Origin: an uncultured bacterium
GTDB taxonomy: Bacteria > Planctomycetota > UBA1135 > GCA-002748355
DNA length: 64,000 bases
Assembly (NCBI GenBank): GCA_937858895.1
Contig: CALLZN010000288.1
Location: 6,074-70,073 of the forward strand
Reading direction: 5' to 3'
Shown here: piece after piece, positions 4,968-40,755 of the stretch
Layout: each line of letters begins with the position of its first letter
Position numbering within the stretch: the stretch's first letter is position 1
Made by a program: the position numbers and the translations under genes
Notes under the pieces: model-generated
Told to the model about the DNA's origin: nothing
Databases searched by the model: none
Seen by the model: the letters and a program-made list of their open reading frames with translations, nothing else

Positions 4968-5545
4968 CGCTGCGCCACCTCGGCCGCCGGCGGACCGTCG
5001 CCGGCCAAGTAGCGGTCGAGGTAGGCAAGCGCTGCGATCGACTGCCCGTCCCCGAGTCCGTCATCACCGGGCGGACCGAGAATGCGTCGACGGGCCTCAT
5101 CCAGCGTCACGACATCGACTTCGATGGCCTCGGAGGCCTCGAGCTGCTGGTCACCGGCTTCGAGTTCGCGCGCCAAGAACACGTGGCAGACCTCGTTCGA
5201 CACGCCCTTGTAGGGCGCGAAGGCGCCGATGTGCTCCCAGCGAGAAGCGCGGTAGCCGGACTCCTCGGCGAGCTCCTTCTTCGCGACCTCGAGTGCATCC
5301 TCGCCGGGCGCGATGCCGCCGATCGGGAACTCCCAAACCTTGCGGCGCAGGAGGTAGCGTTCGACCTCGACGACGACGACATCGCCATTCGCGAGCATCG
5401 GCACGACGAGCGAAGAGCCAGCCATGTCGATGTAGTAGTACTCGCCTTCCGACCGATCTCGCTGCGCGTAGCGATCGAGGCAGTAGCGGTGCCACGGATT
5501 GTCGACGAGGACGCGGCTCGAGATTCGCTCGAAGGGTCTGGGCAT
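4964..5545 (-). CDS. NUDIX hydrolase
   Basis: Nudix box GGIAPGEDALEVAKKELAEESG. ATG at 5545 (MPRPFERISS...) overlaps the upstream TGA by 1 nt. The longer ORF to 5983 was rejected. Confidence 0.85.
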   Translation of the reverse strand: MPRPFERISSRVLVDNPWHRYCLDRYAQRDRSEGEYYYIDMAGSSLVVPMLANGDVVVVEVERYLLRRKVWEFPIGGIAPGEDALEVAKKELAEESGYRASRWEHIGAFAPYKGVSNEVCHVFLARELEAGDQQLEASEAIEVDVVTLDEARRRILGPPGDDGLGDGQSIAALAYLDRYLAGDGPPAAEVAQR

Positions 5546-7308
5546 CAATGTCCGGTCGTGACCGTCATGAGTCGCGAGATCCCAACCGGGAAGGACGACA
5601 GCAAGAACGGATCGAAGTCGAGGATCTGAAAGTGCAGATCGACCCCGACGCCTGTCGGAATGCACGGCAGAGGAAGCACGAGCTTGGCATCGCCTGCCGG
5701 ATCCGCACGGACAGCATAGAACTCGATCGGGTCGAAGTAGAGCAGACAACCGCTGCGCGCGCCCACCGCCACGAGGTCGAGCGGCGACGCGAAGCGCTGG
5801 ACCCCGAGCATCCAAATGCTCGCTCCGCTCGGCACGAGCCCCCAACCCTCGACGGCGAAGTCGTTGCGACCCGGCATCGCAGGCACGAGCGTCCGCGCTT
5901 GCGGAAGCCCTCGCGAAGTCGCGAGCCCGACGCCAGACCATGTGACCTTCGCAGAGTTCTTGCTGATCCGCAGGCGGTCGCAAGTGAAGGGACGCTGCTG
6001 CGCCGGGTTGGCGATGCGCTCGCGATAGGCGATGTAGACACCGCCGAGGGCAGGTTGCGAGAGCTTGCCCCCGATGTGCACGCCGTCGCCGCAGCCGTAG
6101 CTACCGCCGAACCAAGCTTCCACGACATCGCCTCGCAACTCGAGGCGCACACGCTGCCAGCCCTGGTCGACCTGCGGTCGCAAAGCGATTTTGCCGAGGA
6201 CGCGGGGCGCGCTGCGCGCGTTGGCGCCCCAGGCGCCGTCGCCATGGTCGACGAGATAGAGGGTCGCACCGACATCGTCGGCCTCGTAGGTGAGCGAGAC
6301 CCCGGTGTTGCCGTTGGCGACGGACTGGGGTTGTGTGCCCGATACGTCAGCGAACTCGAAGTAGCTGCCGGTCCCACCCTGGGCACCGATGGACCACGTC
6401 GCGCGATCGGCGAGGGCGAGCGGCGAAGCCTCGATCCAGACCCAAGCCTCGATGACGACGTCCCGCACACCGTCCGCGAGCAGCATCGTCATGTTGCCGC
6501 CACCCTGCGCATCCCAGAAGACCGCCGCGTTGCCCCCCTGAGGTGAAGCTGGCACGACGCTCGGGTTGTTCGCATCGACCGTTTGAGGATCGATGACCAC
6601 AGGGAGCGCAAAGCTGCCCCCCCACTCGGCGAGTGTCGCGCCGACAGTCAAGCTATCGAAGCCTTCGTCGATCTCGCGCGGCGCGAGGTCGTTGCTCGCC
6701 CCAGGCGTCGCTGGAGCGATGCGGAAGTCGCGAGCGTTCCTCGTGTCGTAGCCATCACGAATGCGCGACCAAGAAGTCCGCCGCGCGTCGCGGCTCACGA
6801 AGTCGGGCCAGATCCCTTCGTCGATCGGCGAGCCGACACGCCACTTCGAGCGCCAGGCCTCGTAGACGACGCTGTCGACGAGCTTCGACTGCGCATCGAC
6901 GAGCTTCAACGCCGCTTGTGCGTTGTCCCAGATGTCCGTCGTGCCGACGACTTGGTCGACGCGCGGCACGGCCGCCGAGCCGAGCACATAATGCGCACCT
7001 GGCGCGATGCGCGCGCCCGAAGGCAGAACGAAGCTCGAGCGCGGCCCGATCGGATCCTCGCTCTCGAGGCGCCAACCCGATAGGTCGACGGTCGTGCGCG
7101 AGGCGTTGTAGAGCTCGACGAACTCGCCATCATCGACGCCTTCGTCGTCGTAGAGGAACTCGTTGATCACGACACCGCTTGCGTGCTGGGCACAAAGCGA
7201 CGTCGGTCGAGCGAGGAAGAAGGTCGTAGCCACCAAGATCAGGAAGCACGACGAACGAGAGTAGCGAGGCAGGCAGGCAGTCACGGCGCGACCAGGATAG
7301 CAGCGCAT
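5545..7308 (-). CDS. Secreted lamin-tail-domain (LTD) protein
   Basis: N-terminal hydrophobic signal, then VINEFLYDDEGVDDGEFVELYNASRTTVDLSGWRL (LTD signature). ATG at 7306-7308; the track start at 7311 is TTG. Confidence 0.7.
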   Translation of the reverse strand: MRCYPGRAVTACLPRYSRSSCFLILVATTFFLARPTSLCAQHASGVVINEFLYDDEGVDDGEFVELYNASRTTVDLSGWRLESEDPIGPRSSFVLPSGARIAPGAHYVLGSAAVPRVDQVVGTTDIWDNAQAALKLVDAQSKLVDSVVYEAWRSKWRVGSPIDEGIWPDFVSRDARRTSWSRIRDGYDTRNARDFRIAPATPGASNDLAPREIDEGFDSLTVGATLAEWGGSFALPVVIDPQTVDANNPSVVPASPQGGNAAVFWDAQGGGNMTMLLADGVRDVVIEAWVWIEASPLALADRATWSIGAQGGTGSYFEFADVSGTQPQSVANGNTGVSLTYEADDVGATLYLVDHGDGAWGANARSAPRVLGKIALRPQVDQGWQRVRLELRGDVVEAWFGGSYGCGDGVHIGGKLSQPALGGVYIAYRERIANPAQQRPFTCDRLRISKNSAKVTWSGVGLATSRGLPQARTLVPAMPGRNDFAVEGWGLVPSGASIWMLGVQRFASPLDLVAVGARSGCLLYFDPIEFYAVRADPAGDAKLVLPLPCIPTGVGVDLHFQILDFDPFLLSSFPVGISRLMTVTTGH

Positions 7309-7597
7309 CAACAGCGCAACGCCACGCGACCGCGGGTCGCGCTCCGCTTCACGATCCCTTGATCCGGATAGCGACGCAGGCCGAGGCTAGGCTTCGCAGC
7401 GCGAGCAGCGCGCCCATGCCATGGTCGCTGGCCGCGCCGTCGTCAGGTCCCGAGGCGAGCGAAGGCCAGGCCGTTGCCGTGGTAGAAGCGCTAGAAACGT
7501 GGTTTGTCTTGTCGAGGTCGAGCTGAGTTTCTCTTGTTCGCTCCTTCGTTGATGCAGACGCGTGAAGTCGCGAGTCCACGCTCGGTGTCCAACACGG

Positions 7598-9097
7598 TCA
7601 CAGCTGCCGGAGGACAGAGCAGCGCGGCTCGCGGATGTCGAGGACTTCCTCGACCTCGCTACCGTCGACGTAGCGCACCTTGAGCAGGTGCCGGCCCAAG
7701 GCCATCACGACGGTAGCTTCCAGGAGGCTTTCGAGCTCATCGCTCGATCGCGGACGAAGCTTCAGCACGACGTTCTCTGCTGCGGTGCCAATCGTGCAGT
7801 GGTCCACGCGTTGTGGCGGAGCATTCGTTGCGCGGAACGTGACGTGGACGATTGAGGCCCGAACCATGTCGGCATCGACCTGCCCGTCTGGAGCAACGAC
7901 CGCGCGCGAGATCCACGACTGTCCTCGAGCATGAGCGAGGATGCGGATGTGCCGACCAAAGTTCGCAACCCGTGCCCGCGGTTGGTGCCAAGTCGGGCGC
8001 CCCAAGGGCAGGGTACCTGGCTCTTCGTCGACAACGGCCTCGCCGTCGATGCGCGCGTCGACACGTAGAGGGCAGTCGAGCAGGCGAATGCCGACGAGTG
8101 CGACTTCGATCGCCTCGTCCGTCTCGCGAAACTCCATGGCAAATCGATTGCTCTGCCGCTCTTCGACGACGAACGATGCGGGCTCGGCTCTCGCGCTACC
8201 AAGCTCGCAGAACATCACGTCGTACACGTCAGGCGGCAAACGCCCCTCCCTCGTGCCGCTGTCGCTGTCACGCGGCAAGATGCCAAGACTGAAGCGTGTG
8301 CCGCTACGACGACCGCGCACAAAGCAGAACTGAGGCCCGACGAGAAAGGCCCCCGTCCGACGCATCGAATACTGCACTTCACATGGCAGGGCTGCACTCG
8401 GTTCGAAGAGCACCAGCGTATCGCTCTCCATCCGATACGGATACTGTTGCAGCTCACTCGACTTCTCATGCCCTTCAAAGCCTGCCTGCGGCACGAGGCT
8501 GATCAATCCGGCGCTGCTGCCAGTCCACTGCCAATACCCGGGGAGGTCATGCCCAGCCGGAGTCTCGCGGCGACGCAGCAGAACCGAGTCGTCGCGATAC
8601 GTGTAGTCGAAGCGCGGCGGTGTTGCATCCGACGTCGAGACGAAGTGCGCGACCGAAGCGCGCTCGAGATGCAAGCATGCAGGTCCACTCGCTGCATCGA
8701 TCACGTAGTAGCGCGTCGCCACACGCGACTCGGAGAGGAAGACCGAGAGCCAGAGCCGCTCCGTCGTCGGCGCCTCGAACTCCCACGTTCCACCTCCGTC
8801 ACGAGACCGTGCCTCGACGAAGGACTTTGCGCGAACGGACGCAAGTACGTTGCCTGGGTCGATACCGCGGACGTGGACCGCACGCGGCTGCAGTCCGCCG
8901 CTGAAGGTACAACGGACCCTTGTCAAAACTTCACTCCTGCGGCCGTCCAACGCCACCGCAGGTGTGGATCTACGGGGTTGCGACGGGGTCAGGGCATCGC
9001 TCGAGTTCGCGACACGCGACCCGCCCCGCCAGCAGTAAGCGACGCAAACGAGCGCGCAGGCGACAATGCCGCTCCCGAGAGCGTAACGCGACCTCAC
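7598..9097 (-). CDS. Hypothetical membrane-anchored protein with no recognisable domain
   Basis: In-frame GTG at 9095-9097 overlaps the Kelch gene stop (GTGA). It is followed by the hydrophobic anchor ALGSGIVACALVCVAYCW. The track ORF start at 9418 (TTG) would overlap the upstream gene by 325 nt. Confidence 0.45.
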   Translation of the reverse strand: MRSRYALGSGIVACALVCVAYCWRGGSRVANSSDALTPSQPRRSTPAVALDGRRSEVLTRVRCTFSGGLQPRAVHVRGIDPGNVLASVRAKSFVEARSRDGGGTWEFEAPTTERLWLSVFLSESRVATRYYVIDAASGPACLHLERASVAHFVSTSDATPPRFDYTYRDDSVLLRRRETPAGHDLPGYWQWTGSSAGLISLVPQAGFEGHEKSSELQQYPYRMESDTLVLFEPSAALPCEVQYSMRRTGAFLVGPQFCFVRGRRSGTRFSLGILPRDSDSGTREGRLPPDVYDVMFCELGSARAEPASFVVEERQSNRFAMEFRETDEAIEVALVGIRLLDCPLRVDARIDGEAVVDEEPGTLPLGRPTWHQPRARVANFGRHIRILAHARGQSWISRAVVAPDGQVDADMVRASIVHVTFRATNAPPQRVDHCTIGTAAENVVLKLRPRSSDELESLLEATVVMALGRHLLKVRYVDGSEVEEVLDIREPRCSVLRQL

Positions 9098-11388
9098 GGC
9101 TCGATATGCACGTGGATGGTGTTGGTGAAACCGACGGGCTGCGCAAGCTTGTCGAAGACGAGACAGGCATGGACGTAGTCGAGCCCCCGCAAGGCGGGCA
9201 GATTCGGGATCGTGTACGACGAGCGCCCCCGGCCGCTCGAGTTGAGCGGAATCGTCGTCAACGTCTGCAGACTGAGTTGTAGCAACGGATCCACCGTCAT
9301 GGGCAGGAAGAGCGACTTCGCCCCGAGTGAAATCGCTCTTCCCGGCGCGGGCGCACCTGAAAAGAGCAAGAGCGCAACGCCGCCATGTCCACGGGCATCG
9401 TCGAGCGTAAGCTCGCAACGCTCACCTGGTGCGAGGTATTGATGAAACTGCTGCGCGTGTTCTCCCCAGAATGTTGGGGCGCCGAAGCTCAGCATGAAAT
9501 ACTCGCGATTCGTATGGCCCATGATGTGCATGTAGAAAGCGACACCGACATCTCGGTTCGTGTCGTAGCCGGCCGCCACGGGACGGTTATAGTTATCGGT
9601 GCTCGCCGAGACCGTCACCTTTTGCCATGTCGTACCGTCCCAAGCCCAAACATCCTCGGCACCTGGCGCGATCGGCGTGCCGCCGCCGACCAGATAGGTC
9701 TTCCGATGCGCAACGTGGTAGAACATTTTGTGGCCTGTGCGCCAGGCCGGGCCTGAGGCGCCGACCGGTTGACAGGTCCATTGAGATCCATCCCATTCGC
9801 AGACGTCCGGGGGGCTTGTCGTGCCGAAGAGGACGATTCGATCGCGATGAGAGTCGTACACGACCGCGAATTCGCTACGGTTCGGCAGAGCACCCGCTGG
9901 CAAGGAATGCCAGCCTTGTGCATCCAAGAACCAAAAGTCGATGCCACCGGCATTGCTGTTCGCAATATACACAAGCCGTCTTCGCTTCGAGTCGTAGACA
10001 AAACTGGAATAACTTGTTACAGCTGGTGGCGAGAGCTTGGACTTCAACTCCGCCCACGTGCCGTTCGACCATTCCCACGTGCGTGGCGTCGATGGCCATG
10101 ATGCATGGGCAACGATCACCTTGCGTCCTGGATCGTAGGCCAAGTGGAGTCCACTGATCGGCAAATCCTTGATATCGGGAACATCGACAATACGATCGCC
10201 ACTCAGCATCTCGAAATGCCCTGGAACGTTCACACCCCCCCCCCACTTGTGCAGGATCCAGGCATCGTGAAGCGGCGAGAATACGTCCTGGTAGCGATAT
10301 CCGAGACTGGAGCTATGGCCGACAATCGCAGTCCCCAGCTTCGTCCACTGCAACTCCCCAGAAGCTGATTGCGCCAAGCTCCACAAGGACGAATCGTCAC
10401 CCGCGATCGGGCCATCAAAATGCAGGATGCCGGACGGAATCGAACACACGTTGGCCCAGGATGCGCGGGGCGTTGGACCAGCCGCGAAACGCGTGACCTT
10501 CGACCAATCCTTGCCGGCCCAAATCCAGACGTCGTACTGACGAGTCTTGTATTGCTCACTGCCGATGGCGAGCAAGTCGCCGGATGGCAGGCGACCGAGC
10601 TCAACAGAGTCCCAGTTGAGTACAGGAGTCGTGACGGCCGTCCTGAGCTTCGACCACTGGCCAAATCGCCATTCCCAAGTATACGCGTCCGCCTGCGCCC
10701 CTCCATCGAAGCCTGCAAGGACGACGATCGACTTCCGCCGTGGGCTATAAACAGCCGCATGGAGCGCTCGTGGACCGGGATCCAGGGTTGAAGCTGCGAG
10801 TCTCCACGCGGTGCCATTCCAGATCCAGGTGTCGCGCGAGGCCAGGGCTGGATAGCGAGTCGGCCCCACGACCGTTCCGCCGCCGTACATGACGATTTCG
10901 TTCCGCGACTCATCGAGCGTCATGCTCTGATGCCAAAGTCCCGGAGGACGTGGGCTCGACAGCGCAATGCGCTCCCACTTCCGACCGTCCCAGGACCACA
11001 TGTCGTCGAAGACCTTGCTCCCATCGCTGCCCCCGAAGAGCACGACTGCCTTGCGCACGGGATCCCACGCCATGGTCGCCCCACTCCGTCGACCCGGGTT
11101 CGGGACCGGGTACTTAGCACGCCAATCCCGCGCACCATCGCCGAGCTCCCAGGTTGTCTGCATGGGCAGGAACCACAAAGTGCCGGCGCGTGCGTTGAAT
11201 TGGCCGCCGTACATGACGGTTACCTTGCGCAGCGGATCGTAAGCCATCGCCGCGCCCCAGCGCGGAATCAGCGCAGCCACGGGCGCCTCATAGACTTCCT
11301 GAGCCTGGACGAAGCGCGTCGTCACCAGGCACAGCAAGAAGCAGAGCATCCAGCGCAGGCGAGAACTCACTTTACGTTGACCAGGCAT
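9094..11388 (-). CDS. Secreted Kelch-repeat beta-propeller protein
   Basis: Signal peptide MPGQRKVSSRLRWMLCFLLCLVTTRFVQAQ. Repeated Kelch-like units (VTVMYGGQFN, VVLFGGSDGSKVFDDMWSWDGRKWERI, IVMYGGG, IVLFG). Lower GC than the flanks. Confidence 0.8.
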   Translation of the reverse strand: MPGQRKVSSRLRWMLCFLLCLVTTRFVQAQEVYEAPVAALIPRWGAAMAYDPLRKVTVMYGGQFNARAGTLWFLPMQTTWELGDGARDWRAKYPVPNPGRRSGATMAWDPVRKAVVLFGGSDGSKVFDDMWSWDGRKWERIALSSPRPPGLWHQSMTLDESRNEIVMYGGGTVVGPTRYPALASRDTWIWNGTAWRLAASTLDPGPRALHAAVYSPRRKSIVVLAGFDGGAQADAYTWEWRFGQWSKLRTAVTTPVLNWDSVELGRLPSGDLLAIGSEQYKTRQYDVWIWAGKDWSKVTRFAAGPTPRASWANVCSIPSGILHFDGPIAGDDSSLWSLAQSASGELQWTKLGTAIVGHSSSLGYRYQDVFSPLHDAWILHKWGGGVNVPGHFEMLSGDRIVDVPDIKDLPISGLHLAYDPGRKVIVAHASWPSTPRTWEWSNGTWAELKSKLSPPAVTSYSSFVYDSKRRRLVYIANSNAGGIDFWFLDAQGWHSLPAGALPNRSEFAVVYDSHRDRIVLFGTTSPPDVCEWDGSQWTCQPVGASGPAWRTGHKMFYHVAHRKTYLVGGGTPIAPGAEDVWAWDGTTWQKVTVSASTDNYNRPVAAGYDTNRDVGVAFYMHIMGHTNREYFMLSFGAPTFWGEHAQQFHQYLAPGERCELTLDDARGHGGVALLLFSGAPAPGRAISLGAKSLFLPMTVDPLLQLSLQTLTTIPLNSSGRGRSSYTIPNLPALRGLDYVHACLVFDKLAQPVGFTNTIHVHIEP

Positions 11389-13799
11389 GTCTGCATGTTC
11401 TTCTTGGACAAGTTGGGGCGCGGCTCAGCGTCAGAGTATTCGATCGAATAGCGGCTCGCCTGTGTCGCCCCCGTCGGCTTGAGAGTTGCATAGGCGTTCG
11501 CTCCGTGTGTTCCTCGGCACCACGAATCGTAATTAACGATCAAGGACTGGCCCGCCACGAACGGCGACGCCGAACCGAGAAACAACCATGGCTTCCCCTC
11601 GTAGGTTGTCGGATGCAACAGTGCATCGAGCCACACGAACTTCTGGTTACCTGTCCCCGCTCCTCCTGGATTCGGATCGGGACTTATCGGGTAAACATAG
11701 AGATTCCCATTGACGATCGGCCCTTCGATAGCATCGAAGTAGCGCCAGAACGGATTGCTAGGATGGTAGATCGGGTTGACGATCGACCACCATGGATGGA
11801 CATCAGGCAGTAGATGCGGCGTAACGTCTGCAACCGTTGGATAAGACTGCGACCCCACGTGACGGTAACCCGTGGCGGCGGGCCTCGCAAACGCCCAATT
11901 CGACTGCCAGGTTGTGTCTGGAGCTGTGGCAAGGTCCACGTAGCGCGGCCTTGCCTGGAGATCCGGACCGCCACCCGCAAGGCTGTCGGGAACACCGATG
12001 AACCAGACGTATTTGTTGTCCATCTCGACCGTAATTGGACCAGGCGGATCCATAGTTTCTGCAGCCCTCGAATGAAACCGTGTCGTTCCAAAGCGATAGC
12101 CGGTCACAAGCAACTGTCCCAATTCATCCGCTCCGATATCGATCTTTCCATATGGATTCGAAGGGTTGTAACTCGGATGATCGGACTCTCGAGGATTGCC
12201 AAAGCCCTCACAATCGCTACTCCAGGAATGAAAGATCCACTGCTGCTCCTGCGTCGCAATCCAACCCGGCGGAACAGTGAACAGGCGCCCATTCGCCATC
12301 GTGAACGGCAGATCCGAGAGCCCTGCATCGACGAGCGGATTCAAAATCGTCGGCGGAGCATAAGCAGACTCGTTGGTAGCAACCGCGGGTGACAAACGGA
12401 AGTCATGAGCGGAGCCGTCGAACTCAGTCGCCGGCTTGAATATCGGGGGTGAGACCTGCTGTCCCGCGTAGATCAAGTCACGCACAAACAAGGTCCCCCG
12501 GCGCCCAGAAATCTCATTCCCCTTGCGCACGTAGTCGCGAACATCAATGCCAGGCATCGCAGGACTCGCGTTGCGCGCGAGGGTTACCTTATTGCCGAAC
12601 AATCCGTTGAGCAATGCTAGAGTCGTCATACGGTTGTAGCGACCGGAAGAGTACGCGTTGAAGTCCCGAGCAGGCATCACACTTGTCACGGTCAGATCAT
12701 CGGCATCCACACCTTCGAAGTCTGAGCACAAATTGGCGTTTATCACACCAAACGGCACTGGATTATTACCGACAAATGCCGGTTCCTGAGCGCTATCAAA
12801 TACATTATTGACGAGCGTGAGCCGCGAGACACCGCAACTATTCGGCTCCAGTGGGTCATACTGCCCATTCCAGATACCTAGACAATTTCCTGCGAACGTA
12901 TTATTGACAATGATCGGCTCGTGCGATACGAACGGAACTTGGTCACTCCTAGAAGCGTCAACAAATATTCCGTACGCATTGTAGAGAATCATGCAGTTCG
13001 TGATCGTCGGAACGCATTTTCGGCTTCTCGTCAGGAGGATGCCTGAAGTATTGTACGGCTGCGTGCCGTCCATCGCACCCAGAATTGCTACGCGGTCGAT
13101 AGTCGTATTTTCTCCGGTACACGCGATGTTGCGCTGCTTCCCGACAACAGTCCCAAAGTTCACAAGCTCACCAAACTGAACAATCGAGGAGCCTCCAGCG
13201 GCATGCGCGTCCAGATAGGTATTCAGCGCACTTGTGCCCTTCAACGTAAAGTTGGGTGGTATGCAAATCGGGAGCACCTCACCATTTGAATGAACGCCAT
13301 TATGGTTATAATAGCTCGGCGTTGGCATCGTGTTTGACCCAGAAGTCTGGGGGCCATATCTCCCCGGGAGCAAGTGTATGATGGCATGCTCGAAGATATA
13401 CTTTCCATCATTCGATGTATATGGAAGCGGCGAACCGCTGGTCTTCGTGCTTTCGTCGACAATAAAGTCGATCGCGGCCTTGATCGTGTAGAACGGCCAC
13501 GGATAGTGGTAGAGACAGTCGTTCGTCGATGGGTGAACCCAATCGACCGGCATGCGGAGATTGGGCTGCCCGGACTGCGCACCGGACTTCGGGTTCAGGT
13601 TTCGCGCCTGGGCATCGTCGCCGTAGTGCGGATCGACCCAAACTTGGATCACGCGGCCGAGCGGCGGCAGGCTCACCTGTGCGATGCTACGCCCGCAGCA
13701 GAGGCTGACGACCAGACAGGCAGCGAGAATGCACCACGCGTGAGTGCGTGAGTGCGTGAGTGCGTGAGTGCGTGAGTGCGTGAGTGCGTGAGTGCTCAT
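11367..13799 (-). CDS. Secreted right-handed parallel beta-helix repeat protein
   Basis: ATG at 13797-13799, with GAGG 6 nt upstream and a TTGACA-17-TTATCC promoter. Signal-like AWCILAACLVVSLCCGRSIAQ. Beta-helix-type repeats (NCMILYNAYGIFVD, IIVNNTFAGNCLGIWNG, LTLVNNVFDSA). Many A/T-ending codons, which is atypical for this window. Confidence 0.7.
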   Translation of the reverse strand: MSTHALTHSRTHALTHSRTHAWCILAACLVVSLCCGRSIAQVSLPPLGRVIQVWVDPHYGDDAQARNLNPKSGAQSGQPNLRMPVDWVHPSTNDCLYHYPWPFYTIKAAIDFIVDESTKTSGSPLPYTSNDGKYIFEHAIIHLLPGRYGPQTSGSNTMPTPSYYNHNGVHSNGEVLPICIPPNFTLKGTSALNTYLDAHAAGGSSIVQFGELVNFGTVVGKQRNIACTGENTTIDRVAILGAMDGTQPYNTSGILLTRSRKCVPTITNCMILYNAYGIFVDASRSDQVPFVSHEPIIVNNTFAGNCLGIWNGQYDPLEPNSCGVSRLTLVNNVFDSAQEPAFVGNNPVPFGVINANLCSDFEGVDADDLTVTSVMPARDFNAYSSGRYNRMTTLALLNGLFGNKVTLARNASPAMPGIDVRDYVRKGNEISGRRGTLFVRDLIYAGQQVSPPIFKPATEFDGSAHDFRLSPAVATNESAYAPPTILNPLVDAGLSDLPFTMANGRLFTVPPGWIATQEQQWIFHSWSSDCEGFGNPRESDHPSYNPSNPYGKIDIGADELGQLLVTGYRFGTTRFHSRAAETMDPPGPITVEMDNKYVWFIGVPDSLAGGGPDLQARPRYVDLATAPDTTWQSNWAFARPAATGYRHVGSQSYPTVADVTPHLLPDVHPWWSIVNPIYHPSNPFWRYFDAIEGPIVNGNLYVYPISPDPNPGGAGTGNQKFVWLDALLHPTTYEGKPWLFLGSASPFVAGQSLIVNYDSWCRGTHGANAYATLKPTGATQASRYSIEYSDAEPRPNLSKKNMQTCLVNVK
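13738..13795. repeat. 8-bp tandem repeat: TGAGTGCG on the + strand, CGCACTCA on the coding strand. Six full units plus partial units.
   Basis: Read directly. 13741-13788 is six perfect TGAGTGCG units, followed by TGAGTGC. It encodes M-S-(THALTHSR)x2-THA at the N-terminus of the 11367..13799 gene. Confidence 0.95.
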
Positions 13800-13826
13800 G
13801 GTGTGCCTCGATCCCGGGAACTCGCA

Positions 13827-13855: not shown

Positions 13856-14069
13856 CTGCCCTTCGGGGGCTGTCCGGTTCCGAGCGTCCCTCGTCACGCC
13901 GATTCAGCCTCCATGATGTCGATGGTTCGCGCGCAGCAACTAGCATTGTGCGCGCATCCGCAGCGACGACTACGTAGCGCAACCTCGACCGAACCGGCGC
14001 TCGATGCTCGGGCACCTATCGCCTTAGGAACCGCGTGCTTCATCATCGAATCAGCTCAACGGCCAGATC

Positions 14070-29709: not shown

Positions 29710-29737
29710 CTCTCGTCTCTCTCTCTCACTCTCTCTC
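29710..29737. repeat. CT/GA-rich low-complexity tract
   Basis: ctctcgtctctctctctcactctctctc read directly. It is flanked by the hairpin GCACGGG-N9-CCCGTGC at 29738-29760. Confidence 0.9.
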
Positions 29738-29992: not shown

Positions 29993-31090
29993 ATGACGAC
30001 ACTCGACCCTCTCGCCGATTCCTCGAGCCTGACCGAAGAGCGCAGCGCCTGGATCCGGAGCCCCAACTGGGACTTGGCCTGGCTGCTCGGGAGCGCCGCG
30101 ATCGTTCCTCTCGTGCTGGTCCTCGTCTGGGGGGGCATGTCCTCCGGGACGCTCATGCTCGTCATCACGGCCTTGATCGGCGGCCCCCACCTCTTCTCGA
30201 CCTACATCGTGACCTTCCTCGATCCGGCCTTTCGCCGCGCTCACGGCAAGGTCCTCGCGCTGATCACCCTCGTGATTCCGCCCCTCGTGCTCTTCGGCGT
30301 GATGACGAACTTCGCGGTCCTGCTCTCGCTCTTCATCTTCGCGGCCTCGTTGCACGTCGTTCAGCAGAACGCCTATCTCACCGACGTCTACCGACGCCGA
30401 GCAGCTCAGCGAGAAGCACCCAACGCGCGCTGGATCGACTACGGCTTGCTCTTCGTCTGCATGCATCCGATCGCGAGCTGGAAGCTCGTGCACGATGACT
30501 TCCGCCTCGGAGATGTGCCGATTCGCCTACCCGACTTCTTGCTCGGACCGTGGACCTACATCGCCGTTTGGCTGGTCTTCGCCTTCTTCCTCGTCGCGTG
30601 GTGCCGCAAGACGCTGCGCGAAGCGCGCGAGGGCAGCCTCAACCGCCCCAAGACCCTGCTCATCGGTGCGACGACGGTGATCGCCTTCTTCGTGCCAGCA
30701 GCGGCGGACGGCGAGCGCCTAGAGCTAGCCTTTCAGTCGGTCAACGCCTGGCACTCGTTCCAGTACTTGGGGCTCGTCTGGTATGCCCTCATGATCCGCA
30801 AGAAGCACGGGCTCTTGCAGTCGCGCTTCGTCAACTCGATTGCGGGCACGGGCGCGCGCCAGACGCTGCGCTTCTATGGCTTCTGCTTCCTCGTCACCGT
30901 GACGCTGCTCGCGTCGCTCTACGGCATCGTCGCGGTCGACCCGCTCGGACTCACGTTCCAGCAGTACTGGTACGTGATGGTGCTCTCACCGCTCCTCATC
31001 CACTATGCCCTCGATGCCTATCTCTTCGCGGTGAGCAACCGGCGTGGCGTCGACGTGGCGACTGTTCCCTTCGCGATCTCGGACCTCTGA
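29993..31090 (+). CDS. Hypothetical polytopic membrane protein
   Basis: At least 8 hydrophobic segments (e.g. LAWLLGSAAIVPLVLVLVWGG, AVLLSLFIFAASLHVV, YIAVWLVFAFFLVAW). No family recognised. Confidence 0.5.
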   Translation: MTTLDPLADSSSLTEERSAWIRSPNWDLAWLLGSAAIVPLVLVLVWGGMSSGTLMLVITALIGGPHLFSTYIVTFLDPAFRRAHGKVLALITLVIPPLVLFGVMTNFAVLLSLFIFAASLHVVQQNAYLTDVYRRRAAQREAPNARWIDYGLLFVCMHPIASWKLVHDDFRLGDVPIRLPDFLLGPWTYIAVWLVFAFFLVAWCRKTLREAREGSLNRPKTLLIGATTVIAFFVPAAADGERLELAFQSVNAWHSFQYLGLVWYALMIRKKHGLLQSRFVNSIAGTGARQTLRFYGFCFLVTVTLLASLYGIVAVDPLGLTFQQYWYVMVLSPLLIHYALDAYLFAVSNRRGVDVATVPFAISDL

Positions 31091-38383: not shown

Positions 38384-40755
38384 GCGTCTTCCTCCAGGCC
38401 GAAGTCGGCCACGCCATCTTCGACCTCGAGCACGTCGTCGAAGAGCTCATCGAAGCCAGCGTCGAAGGCATCCAAGAAGCGATCGAAGTCCGACTTGCGT
38501 GCGTCGTCGTCACTCGGCTCTGACAACGGGAACCCTGTGGACACAGCTTCCACTCGAGCATCACTCGCCGGGGCCTCGACCAGCGGCAGCGGAGGCTCTT
38601 CCGGCTCGCCGAGCACGCGCGCGAGGAAGCGCTCGTACTCGTCGTAGTTGTTGCCAAGGGCATAGACGCGCGCTTCGATGCGCGCCGTGAGTTCGGGGCT
38701 CGCGCGCTGCTCGAGCGCGGTCAGCACCCGTTCGAGGGTCGCGAACGCGCCGTCACAAGTCGCACCCGGCAAGACGAAGGCGAACTTGGCCACAGCGCTG
38801 CGGTAGACGCCATCCGTCGGCCGCAGCATCTGGCGCGCGACGTGCTCGACGTGGCGCGCCAAGACATTCCCACGTCGCTGATCGGCCGCTTCGTCGTGGA
38901 GCTCGACGACGTAGACCTCGATGCCGTTGCGCACCGCGATCGACCATTCGGTCCGCATGCGACGCACGAAGTCGTCGAGTCGACCAAGCTCCAAGTGCTC
39001 CGCCACAGAGACCGGCAGGCTTGCCTCGAGGGGCACATCGCTCGTGAGCCGGAAGGCATCGGCAATGTGCGGCACGAGCGAAGCGAGGTCCGGCGCGTCG
39101 ATGTCTGGCGCAAAGACGCGTGTGAGATAGCGCCCGAAGGGTCGCTCGACGGCTGCCTCGAGGCGCAGCTCGATCCGCGACCGAACGACAAGAGCCTCGG
39201 CGGCCGCCGTGCCGCTGAGCACGAGGACATAGCAGTGTCGATAGCCAAAGGAATACACGCCGTCGGTCGGTCGCAAGTCCGGGACGACTTGCTCGACGAC
39301 CCACTGATCGAGGACGCCGACGTCGTCGACCGCCTCGCCTGCCGGGTCGAGGCACTGCAGGGTGACGACGGCCGTCGAGATGCCTTGCCGGCTGCAGCGC
39401 GCGTCTTCGATGCGTAGACGTGCGCCGAGCTGCTTCGCCGATCCGAGCCAGGGCCCGATCGAGATGGCTTCGCGCAGGCCGAGTCCAAAGTCGAGAGCCT
39501 TGGGTCCAGCGCCGGTTCGGCGCAGCGTCACCGCCACCCAGTCCGCGATGCCGTAGAAGGTCATGACCGTCGCATCGTTGAAGGCGCGAACAGGTATGCG
39601 ATCGAGGCAAAGCAGAAGGCGCACGACCCCGGCGGCATCGGCGATCGGAGCGACGACGAGCGGTCCAGCCGCCACGAAGACTTCGTCGAGGCCAAAGCCG
39701 TTGCAGCGCTTCCCGGTCTCGAGCACGCTTTGGACGAGCGGGCTCGTCTCGGAGCTCGCGAGCAGATCGCGCAGTTCGTGCGCCTCGTAGCCACGATGCG
39801 CCGCGAGGTCGAGCAGGCCGTCCTCGAGGACGGAGATGAAGGCGCAATGCGTTGCGCCACAGTGCTCTTCGACCATCTCGAGCGCGACGTCGAAGAGCTC
39901 GTTCTCGCTCGCCGCCTCGAGCCGTGTCGCGGTCCGGATCAAGCTGCCGAACTGACTCGAACTGTCGACGAGCCGGCGCTTGATCTCGTGGTTGGCTTCG
40001 GCCAAGAGCTCCTTCTCGCGGCGCAGCAGCGCGAGTTCTTCCCACTGGTGCCGGTACTGCGTCCAAAGCCCTGCCGCGCGCCGGGCCGCGGCGTCCCGGA
40101 ACTCACCAACGACGAAGCCGACCGCGAAGAAGAGCAGCGCTTCCTGCATGACGCTGCGATCGAGCAGGGCGAGGAAGTCGCCATCGAGGGCACGATGTGC
40201 GCCGATGGCGTAGAGCACGGACGCGATCCCCGCCGCGACGATGGCACCCACGACGCCCCGCGCCGCAGACATCGGCAAGACCACGAGCCAATAGGGGTGC
40301 GGGTGGACGGCGTGAGAACCGATGGTGCCAGTGACCGCGATCTCGCCGAGCGCGATCAAGCCGAAGAGCACCAAGGCCTCGAGCAAACTCGCGACGAAGC
40401 GCTGCTCGCTGGGGGCAAAGGACGCGACGGCCTCTCCTTCGATCTGCGCTTGGATGTCGACGTCGTAGACGACGTCGTTGTCGCCGATGTCGTTGTCGAC
40501 GTCGTCGTCGGCCCGCGCCACGCCGCTGTGCTGGTCGTCGAGCCAGTCGAGGAGTTCTTCTGGGTCTTCGAAGTCCGCCTCCGCGTCGAGCGCGAAGTCC
40601 TCGCTGCGCAGTTCCGGCTCGACTGCGTCATCGACGCCGCCGTCGTCGACCGCACTGTCCGCGCTCTCCACATCGACTTCGACGAGGATGAAGTCCTCGT
40701 CGAGGTCGAGCTCCAGCGCATCATCGTGAGCGCGCTTCACCAGCGCACGACCCAT
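38380..40755 (-). CDS. pelD: PelD-like c-di-GMP receptor (TM, GAF, two degenerate GGDEF-like modules) with acidic N- and C-terminal tails
   Basis: TM region at residues 120-215 and a GAF-like region. RIED (RxxD-type) at residues 448-451. LRPTDGVY occurs twice, 150 residues apart. Synteny with pelE/F/G. Confidence 0.7.
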   Translation of the reverse strand: MGRALVKRAHDDALELDLDEDFILVEVDVESADSAVDDGGVDDAVEPELRSEDFALDAEADFEDPEELLDWLDDQHSGVARADDDVDNDIGDNDVVYDVDIQAQIEGEAVASFAPSEQRFVASLLEALVLFGLIALGEIAVTGTIGSHAVHPHPYWLVVLPMSAARGVVGAIVAAGIASVLYAIGAHRALDGDFLALLDRSVMQEALLFFAVGFVVGEFRDAAARRAAGLWTQYRHQWEELALLRREKELLAEANHEIKRRLVDSSSQFGSLIRTATRLEAASENELFDVALEMVEEHCGATHCAFISVLEDGLLDLAAHRGYEAHELRDLLASSETSPLVQSVLETGKRCNGFGLDEVFVAAGPLVVAPIADAAGVVRLLLCLDRIPVRAFNDATVMTFYGIADWVAVTLRRTGAGPKALDFGLGLREAISIGPWLGSAKQLGARLRIEDARCSRQGISTAVVTLQCLDPAGEAVDDVGVLDQWVVEQVVPDLRPTDGVYSFGYRHCYVLVLSGTAAAEALVVRSRIELRLEAAVERPFGRYLTRVFAPDIDAPDLASLVPHIADAFRLTSDVPLEASLPVSVAEHLELGRLDDFVRRMRTEWSIAVRNGIEVYVVELHDEAADQRRGNVLARHVEHVARQMLRPTDGVYRSAVAKFAFVLPGATCDGAFATLERVLTALEQRASPELTARIEARVYALGNNYDEYERFLARVLGEPEEPPLPLVEAPASDARVEAVSTGFPLSEPSDDDARKSDFDRFLDAFDAGFDELFDDVLEVEDGVADFGLEEDA

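Follow-up and report, generated by a model that had tools for sequence, protein, structure and literature searches.

We analysed a stretch of 64,000 nucleotides (nt) of DNA (the window) from an uncultured planctomycete of the UBA1135 lineage (GenBank assembly GCA_937858895.1, contig CALLZN010000288.1, positions 6,074 to 70,073 of the forward strand), in which a perfect tandem repeat of an octanucleotide lies within the opening 20 codons of the gene for a secreted beta-helix protein. Our results indicate that this tract is probably a hypermutable simple sequence repeat (SSR) that changes by slipped-strand mispairing and acts as a translational on/off locus. The hypermutability of the tract is well supported by comparison with closely related contigs, while the on/off switch, read from sequence, is credible but unproven.

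The octanucleotide tract and the start of the gene

The features of the tract and of the 5' end of the gene, all on the minus strand of the window, are the following.

13738-13795, minus strand: octanucleotide tract, from Tandem Repeats Finder, shuffled sequences, translation and length polymorphism between contigs
11367-13799, minus strand: gene for the secreted right-handed beta-helix protein of 810 amino acids (aa), from the open reading frame (ORF), a NosD match, an AlphaFold (AF2) model, Foldseek and the ratio of non-synonymous to synonymous substitution rates (dN/dS)
13797-13799, minus strand: ATG start codon, invariant in five contigs
13806-13809, minus strand: GAGG Shine-Dalgarno-like motif, 6 nt 5' of the ATG, invariant in the contig alignment
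13826-13855, minus strand: sigma-70-like promoter match TTGACA-18-TATCCT, 10 of 12 positions in a consensus scan, a consensus match only
13680-13799, minus strand: signal-peptide coding region, residues 1-40, from translation, the AF2 model and comparison with homologues
13695-13736, minus strand: signal-peptide h-region W22-C35, with the core WCILAACLVVSLCC; the c-region ends S-I-A/Q
13673-13689, minus strand: out-of-frame stops TAG (13689-13687) and TGA (13675-13673), from the sequence and a simulation of 0-12 units

The tract consisted of seven copies of CACTCACG and was perfectly periodic over 58 nt. Tandem Repeats Finder gave it a period of 8, 7.2 copies, 100% matches, no indels and a score of 116, which made it by far the top repeat of the window (runner-up score 63). 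A 16-nt probe of two units had six overlapping matches in the tract and none elsewhere in the window; shuffled sequences had a mean of 0.11 matches, and none of 100 shuffles reached six. The coding strand reads GAGG-cacacc-ATG-AG-(CACTCACG)x7-CGTGG, so that the first unit begins 2 nt past the ATG, and the sequences bordering the tract are …CACACCATGAG upstream and CGTGGTGCATTC… downstream. The six perfect units plus partial units of a preliminary description of this DNA are the same tract read in register CGCACTCA. A perfect non-triplet repeat within an ORF is what is expected of an SSR contingency locus, and the 7 units exceed the threshold of 3 for instability, at least three octanucleotide units having been the criterion of a survey of phase-variable ORFs (PMC7383803). 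No octamer units in inverted orientation were found within 400 nt of the tract.

Translation of the ORF gave S-(THALTHSR)x2-THA for the tract, as had been proposed; these are residues 2-21, which form the n-region of the signal peptide, after the start M and before W22. The N-terminus of the 810-aa protein is MSTHALTHSRTHALTHSRTHA-WCILAACLVVSLCC-GRSIA/QVSLPPLGRVIQVWVDPHYG, the cleavage site between SIA and Q being placed by the -3/-1 rule and not by a dedicated predictor. The preliminary description was also right that the tract is free of stops in all three frames of the coding strand; the two out-of-frame readings terminate just beyond it. Simulation of 0-12 units yielded the full protein only with 1, 4, 7 or 10 units, and peptides of 18-52 aa otherwise.

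The ATG at 13799 is supported by the sequence as the real start, since the ribosome-binding site (RBS) and the ATG are invariant, a 2-nt indel lies upstream and there is no alternative in-frame start. The -10 element, the RBS, the ATG and the bases between them were unchanged in the alignment of five contigs, and the -35 element is TTGACG in a sister lineage. The promoter described earlier (TTGACA-17-TTATCC) lies at the same site, which is better read in the register listed above, and the GAGG was found as described, at 13809-13806. An upstream start was ruled out: the in-frame ORF extends to a GTG at 14015, but the promoter-like site falls inside this extension, and the extension is noncoding because the 2-nt indel between lineages would break any frame. 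A start downstream of the tract was likewise ruled out by the lack of any in-frame ATG, GTG or TTG between the tract and V42, which lies past the predicted cleavage site. These results agree with the earlier claims that the ATG is the true start and that the next in-frame Met lies past the signal peptide. A role of the tract in RNA structure is unlikely, because the start region and tract together were no more structured than shuffled sequences (z = +1.0).

Tract length in related contigs

We then retrieved the contig DNA for the members of the 90%-identity protein cluster of the gene, aligned it, and compared it with the window by BLASTN. The cluster contained proteins of 803, 806 and 810 aa and a 399-aa fragment that starts at a GTG after the signal peptide. 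The tract alleles were the following.

L001 and L002, Logan contigs from two runs: 4 units, in frame
L003, European Nucleotide Archive (ENA) ERZ794926: CACG plus 5 units (44 nt, 12 nt fewer than the window; 5.5 units), in frame
Window: 7 units, in frame
L004, NCBI GCA_035327345.1: 8 units (8 nt more than the window), with A>C in three units, out of frame

Outside the tract, L004 matched the window at every position across 2,656 nt. L003 differed from it over 8.4 kb by 8 single-nucleotide polymorphisms and by a sole indel, the tract itself (99.9% identity), while L001 and L002, at 96.3-96.8% identity, represent a sister lineage about 3.5% divergent. The flanks of the tract were invariant across the contigs despite the four alleles. 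Since contigs 100% and 99.9% identical to the window differ from it in tract length, the tract is, at the level of sequence, the fastest-changing site locally. The alignment of orthologs that the preliminary description had called for thus revealed tracts of 4, 5.5, 7 and 8 units between conserved flanks, the variation in unit number between close relatives that is expected of an SSR contingency locus.

The repeat lies entirely within the leader-peptide region (residues 2-21, before the h-region at 22-35), so that in-frame variants spare the mature protein, as in the opa genes of Neisseria. The mature parts of proteins P0026 and P0001 (L003) were identical save for 4 substitutions. The 12-nt difference of L003 is best explained by a slip of the half-period (CACT/CACG) or by a loss of 8 nt followed by a compensating loss of 4 nt. 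The earlier rule that only changes of three units keep the frame therefore holds for whole units, but this natural allele, shorter by 1.5 units, is also in frame. In the beta-helix gene, L003 (coverage 4.4x) had 4 non-synonymous changes and 1 synonymous change relative to the window; the non-synonymous ones cluster near the C-terminus of P0001 (…SAPPSVAGQSLTV…, …YAPLKP…; L003:5000-5421) and may be errors of low coverage, not true variation.

The 8-unit allele of L004 encoded a product of 44 aa in the simulation. Because this allele is frameshifted, the NCBI pipeline started the gene of L004 at the internal GTG after the signal peptide. The variant unit in its tract (L004:1330-1400) is CACTCCCG, with A>C at unit position 6. 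This unit is one of the two commonest natural variants in independent octamer arrays of other genomes, where it mostly lies away from contig edges. It may be a naturally favoured form of the unit or else a sequencing error that recurs in the octamer motif. The changes in L004 are thus not necessarily errors, since CACTCCCG is common in independent arrays and is also present in a Pirellulaceae contig. In that contig the unit occurs at the edge of an unrelated array (L060:1-40), and it is common in the arrays of Gemmatimonadota.

An artefact of assembly or sequencing, in which the length differences would arise from the way assemblers traverse a short tandem repeat, is very improbable as an explanation of these alleles. 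The contigs do come from different pipelines (Logan contigs at k=31, a SPAdes-style contig at 4.4x and a fragmented third-party-annotation (TPA) metagenome-assembled genome (MAG)), the 8-unit allele carries its three clustered A>C changes, and by our own reasoning the 34-nt tract of the Logan contigs equals the shortest traversal of a repeat cycle at k=31, with the same length modulo 8. However, a cycle at k=31 normally breaks contigs, and Logan contigs of 16 kb and 11 kb pass through the tract with 4 units each; an 803-aa protein of identical sequence is on record from a third Logan contig, and a genuine difference is expected in a lineage that is about 3.5% divergent. The 12-nt difference of L003 does not preserve the length modulo 8 and is therefore no simple collapse of a de Bruijn cycle, and the tracts of 46 and 58 nt were reckoned shorter than typical reads and than k=55. 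The frequency of CACTCCCG as a natural unit in independent arrays, mostly off contig edges, also speaks against an artefact.

Exact look-ups of the metallo-beta-lactamase, the acyl-CoA dehydrogenase, the Kelch protein, P0026 and the GTG-start product returned known contigs or nothing, and a scan of Joint Genome Institute (JGI) metagenomes with the invariant left flank gave no matches. The organism seems to be absent from the JGI collection and is rare in public data.

The secreted protein and the switching model

The only Pfam result for the beta-helix gene was a sub-threshold match to NosD, a beta-helix family. The AF2 model, made from the alignment of relatives, had a mean predicted local distance difference test (pLDDT) score of 62; residues ~100-560 were well modelled with many short strands, a helix at residues 21-34 corresponded to the signal-peptide core, and residues 1-20 were disordered. 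Foldseek comparison with the PDB gave weak matches (best E = 2e-3), overwhelmingly to right-handed parallel beta-helix proteins: pectin methylesterases, GH87 and GH55 glucanases, mannuronan C5-epimerases, PL6 lyases, phage tailspikes and NosD. At the level of fold, the model thus supports a secreted beta-helix protein, and the 810-aa secreted beta-helix product described earlier is recovered in an ORF of 810 aa with a signal-peptide-like N-terminus and a predicted fold of this type. Assignment to a specific enzyme family was not possible, as the NosD match is sub-threshold and the Foldseek matches are weak. A secreted or surface product is expected of an SSR contingency locus, and here a signal peptide and a fold like that of secreted glycan-active enzymes are predicted.

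The protein has 22 relatives in a large protein database, which share 27-38% identity with it outside its own 90% cluster and have no Pfam domains on record there. The few named ones are all hypothetical proteins, two of them from Planctomycetota MAGs, and the family is uncharacterised and restricted to Planctomycetota. None of the 21 more distant homologues has the repeat tract; these have ordinary short signal peptides directly before a conserved RVIxxWVDPxYG motif. From this comparison, the tract would be an insertion specific to this lineage, placed in a tolerant position after the start codon and ahead of the hydrophobic core.

Comparison of the window with the sister lineage gave a synonymous divergence (dS) of 0.143 and a dN/dS of 0.086 for the beta-helix gene. 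This ratio indicates that the gene is under purifying selection and functional in both lineages despite the three-unit difference between their tracts. The tract is perfect in both despite a dS of 0.14, which is consistent with ongoing turnover. The acyl-CoA dehydrogenase gene next to the beta-helix gene has a dS of 0.046, a third of this value. The GC content of the beta-helix gene is 0.556 and its third-codon-position GC content (GC3) is 0.63, versus 0.70-0.71 and 0.83-0.85 in the genes just upstream; this bias fades across the next two genes. The atypical composition and the raised dS suggest horizontal acquisition or a different recombination history of the gene. The figure of about 68% GC in the preliminary description is too high, for the window averages about 66% and the beta-helix gene 55.6%.

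In the switching model that we favour, misalignment of the nascent and template strands during replication by at least one 8-nt unit would change the length of the tract, and misalignment by the 4-nt half-period CACT/CACG would do so occasionally. Tracts of 1, 4, 7 or 10 units would give the full secreted protein (ON), and other whole numbers of units would give a peptide of 18-52 aa ending just past the tract (OFF), because 8 is not divisible by 3 and the tract separates the signal-peptide core from the only usable start. Length changes that keep the frame would affect just the n-region of the signal peptide, which tolerates them, and would be harmless; the locus could shift among ON lengths with the mature protein intact. 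The next two secreted-protein genes overlap or abut the stops upstream of them, and OFF states would therefore probably lower their expression through lost translational coupling or polarity. A possible benefit would be to vary an exposed glycan-binding or glycan-degrading protein under pressure from phages or grazers. Slippage by single units would almost inevitably produce OFF variants, and there is one imperfect direct observation of such a variant. We infer the slippage itself, its reversibility, a high rate of switching within populations, the downstream polarity and the adaptive benefit.

Several observations weigh against an on/off switch. The alleles come from assembled contigs, and the sample is small (four alleles in the five contigs read, drawn from some five or six assemblies). 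On long contigs the alleles (4, 5.5 and 7 units) are all in frame. The natural alleles comprise three ON alleles and one OFF allele, the latter with three odd substitutions and from a fragmented MAG, on a contig of 2,656 nt; these A>C changes fall inside its tract, in a span of 20 nt, with none in the flanks, and are a possible error. This OFF allele is the weakest element of the case and may result from an error of assembly or sequencing. When we looked for OFF-frame peptides on record, the tract locus yielded none, and the matches were unrelated octamer-repeat translations. Finally, Tandem Repeats Finder detected no second comparable tract in the window, and there is no sign of a multi-gene phasome. 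The ON/OFF interpretation of the preliminary description is thus partly supported, by the variable tract length, the logic of the reading frames and a single OFF allele of doubtful reliability.

The main rival to the switch is a tolerated coding microsatellite, mutable but with no evolved regulation, in which OFF variants are purged and only in-frame variants persist. It differs from the switch in whether OFF subpopulations are kept at appreciable frequency, and we consider it possible but rather unlikely. It would account for the in-frame state of all the long and good contigs (4, 5.5 and 7 units), for a non-integer change of 12 nt that resembles restoration of the frame, for the strong purifying selection (dN/dS 0.086) and for the lack of further recorded OFF peptides; moreover, the n-region of a signal peptide accommodates changes of length. 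However, slips of a single unit are the commonest at such tracts, so that OFF cells arise at the mutation rate of the tract regardless, and a shift between 4 and 7 units goes most simply through OFF intermediates. A tolerated microsatellite also leaves a 7-unit, non-triplet repeat perfect in two lineages at the most switch-prone position possible, and one OFF consensus allele exists.

Alternatively, the tract could act as a rheostat, its length tuning initiation or export through an unstructured CA-rich stretch and through the length and charge of the n-region, with selection among in-frame lengths. The z-score of +1.0 reported above is in line with such a function, as is the number of arginines in the n-region (0, 1 or 2 with 1, 4 or 7 units), and the same octamer array also occurs as noncoding DNA beside genes in other phyla. 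Nothing in the present analysis links tract length to efficiency, though, and a general leader function is made less likely by the Longimicrobium arrays, which face both towards and away from the genes beside them. Because a non-triplet unit inevitably causes frameshifts, a rheostat could only be additional to ON/OFF switching, and we judge it quite improbable.

Known contingency loci, neighbouring genes and dispersed arrays

SSR contingency loci are textbook features of host-adapted pathogens of the genera Neisseria, Haemophilus, Campylobacter and Helicobacter; lic1A, lic2A and lgtC of Haemophilus influenzae, for example, are tetranucleotide contingency loci. By analogy, the planctomycete tract would be functionally closest to the opa genes of Neisseria, with which it is not homologous. 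In opa, CTCTT repeats in the region encoding the leader peptide cause frameshifts at ~1e-3 per cell per generation, and in-frame variants differ in the leader only (PMC3960869). Both cases have a non-triplet SSR inside a signal-peptide coding region, whose number of units sets the frame of the mature exported protein. The planctomycete unit, however, is of 8 nt and not 5, and its tract encodes the polar n-region, whereas the opa repeat encodes the hydrophobic core. Opa is a multigene family of a host-restricted pathogen, with known switching rate and phenotypes; the planctomycete locus is a single one in an uncultured environmental host, known from sequence alone. No homology to Opa and no repeat-bearing paralogue family was found, the product being a beta-helix protein and the repeat being absent from all 21 distant homologues.

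An octanucleotide unit is known from H. influenzae biogroup aegyptius, where hmwA has a variable SSR of GCATCATC at its promoter (PMC3309571). In H. influenzae too, repeats lie at the extreme 5' ends of ORFs or at the promoters of surface genes and their copy number varies between strains, but the hmwA octamer modulates transcription from the promoter, whereas the planctomycete tract would act on translation. The nanH3 gene of Gardnerella has a coding poly-C tract whose length gives a full-length or a truncated secreted sialidase (bioRxiv 10.1101/2020.09.16.300947). It resembles the planctomycete gene as a coding SSR in the gene of a secreted or cell-wall carbohydrate-active enzyme and differs in being a homopolymer of a host-associated organism, with heterogeneity within populations shown experimentally.

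The preliminary description stated that such loci were not known in genomes near 68% GC. This is about the GC content of Burkholderia mallei. SSR indels arise in that species on passage and can frameshift genes (PMC1574311), so that SSR variation at high GC is on record and high GC is no novelty in itself. B. mallei and B. pseudomallei share with the planctomycete a high-GC genome with SSRs that change in length; theirs are thousands of tracts, mostly short and mostly noncoding, as opposed to one long, perfect and strategically placed octamer here. Our literature search, which was limited and is not proof of absence, found no papers tying SSR phase variation to Planctomycetes. Judged by its sequence and by the comparison between contigs, the locus is a candidate contingency locus, which would be new in the phylum and has an unusual unit length.

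Two further genes on the minus strand follow the beta-helix gene.

9094-11388, minus strand: Kelch beta-propeller gene with its own signal peptide, from Pfam Kelch matches and the N-terminus (751 or 764 aa)
7598-9097, minus strand: third gene, 499 aa, with no Pfam family and a signal-peptide-like N-terminus; its start codon and the Kelch stop codon overlap as GTGA

The start of the Kelch gene and the end of the beta-helix gene share 22 nt, or lie 18 nt apart if the 751-aa start is used, and these two genes are probably in one operon. The GTGA overlap suggests that the 499-aa gene is translationally coupled to the Kelch gene. The gene order is identical in the sister lineage, with overlaps of 4 nt, and from their arrangement the three genes look like an operon of exported proteins. 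The genes downstream of the beta-helix gene (window 5545-11388) also include, after a gap of ~290 nt, one for a 588-aa protein with a Lamin-tail domain and a signal-peptide-like N-terminus.

Elsewhere in the window, the only other notable non-triplet SSR is an imperfect (CT)13 at 29710-29737, in an intergenic region of ~400 nt upstream of a gene starting at 29993 on the plus strand, and it is too interrupted for obvious mutability. An imperfect GTCGTC or 12-15-nt repeat (65-83% matches) at 40456-40510, within a long minus-strand ORF, causes no frameshift because its unit is a multiple of 3.

We also scanned species-representative genomes for exact matches to three units; the following statements on arrays hold among the matches listed (L006-L125). 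Most came from Longimicrobium and from other Gemmatimonadota MAGs, with many loci per genome. The arrays, (CACTNNCG)n with 3-13 units, are intergenic, can point either way with respect to the genes beside them, and vary at unit positions 5-6, which gives the form CACTNNCG. Examples are L123:7230-7390, L010:960-1340 (read on the minus strand) and L052:1-241. About one fifth have an inverted array 16-263 nt away, always as (CGNNAGTG)n-spacer-(CACTNNCG)n, and such pairs look like miniature inverted-repeat transposable elements (MITEs) or repetitive extragenic palindromic (REP) elements. The arrays are apparently a distinct and undescribed dispersed repeat, a limited literature search having found no published description of octamer arrays in Gemmatimonadota. 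The Longimicrobium tracts were rejected as coding or leader SSRs at the 5' ends of long ORFs in the same orientation, as a test of GC by codon position showed mostly high-GC shadow-frame ORFs and intergenic arrays. The Pirellulaceae contig was rejected as a second coding case in planctomycetes, since its array lies at the contig edge, downstream of a convergent gene resembling those for nonribosomal peptide synthetases (NRPS). The Longimicrobium arrays share with the planctomycete tract the identical octamer unit, the tandem arrangement and a high-GC genome. The planctomycete tract, however, is coding, occurs just once in the 64 kb and lacks an inverted partner; it is a separate phenomenon from arrays of the Longimicrobium type.

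A far-reaching version of our interpretation, which we regard as a long shot, is that the locus is a selected contingency operon in a free-living planctomycete and the first phase-variable SSR locus of its phylum, in a horizontally acquired gene whose tract was seeded by an octamer array of the Gemmatimonadota type, a family of elements with a representative in a Pirellulaceae MAG too. If this were true, a dispersed or mobile repeat would have given an acquired gene a new on/off switch near its start.

Tracts of the planctomycete type mislead gene callers into wrong starts and truncations, as seen in one NCBI MAG. The significance of a switch at this locus would lie in an unusually long unit of 8 nt that gates a putative operon of secreted beta-helix and Kelch proteins, and, if true, it would provide a simple sequence signature with which to screen metagenomes. 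If well supported, it would extend stochastic on/off switching of exposed proteins beyond the arms races of hosts and pathogens, for example to encounters with phages or grazers or to surface attachment.

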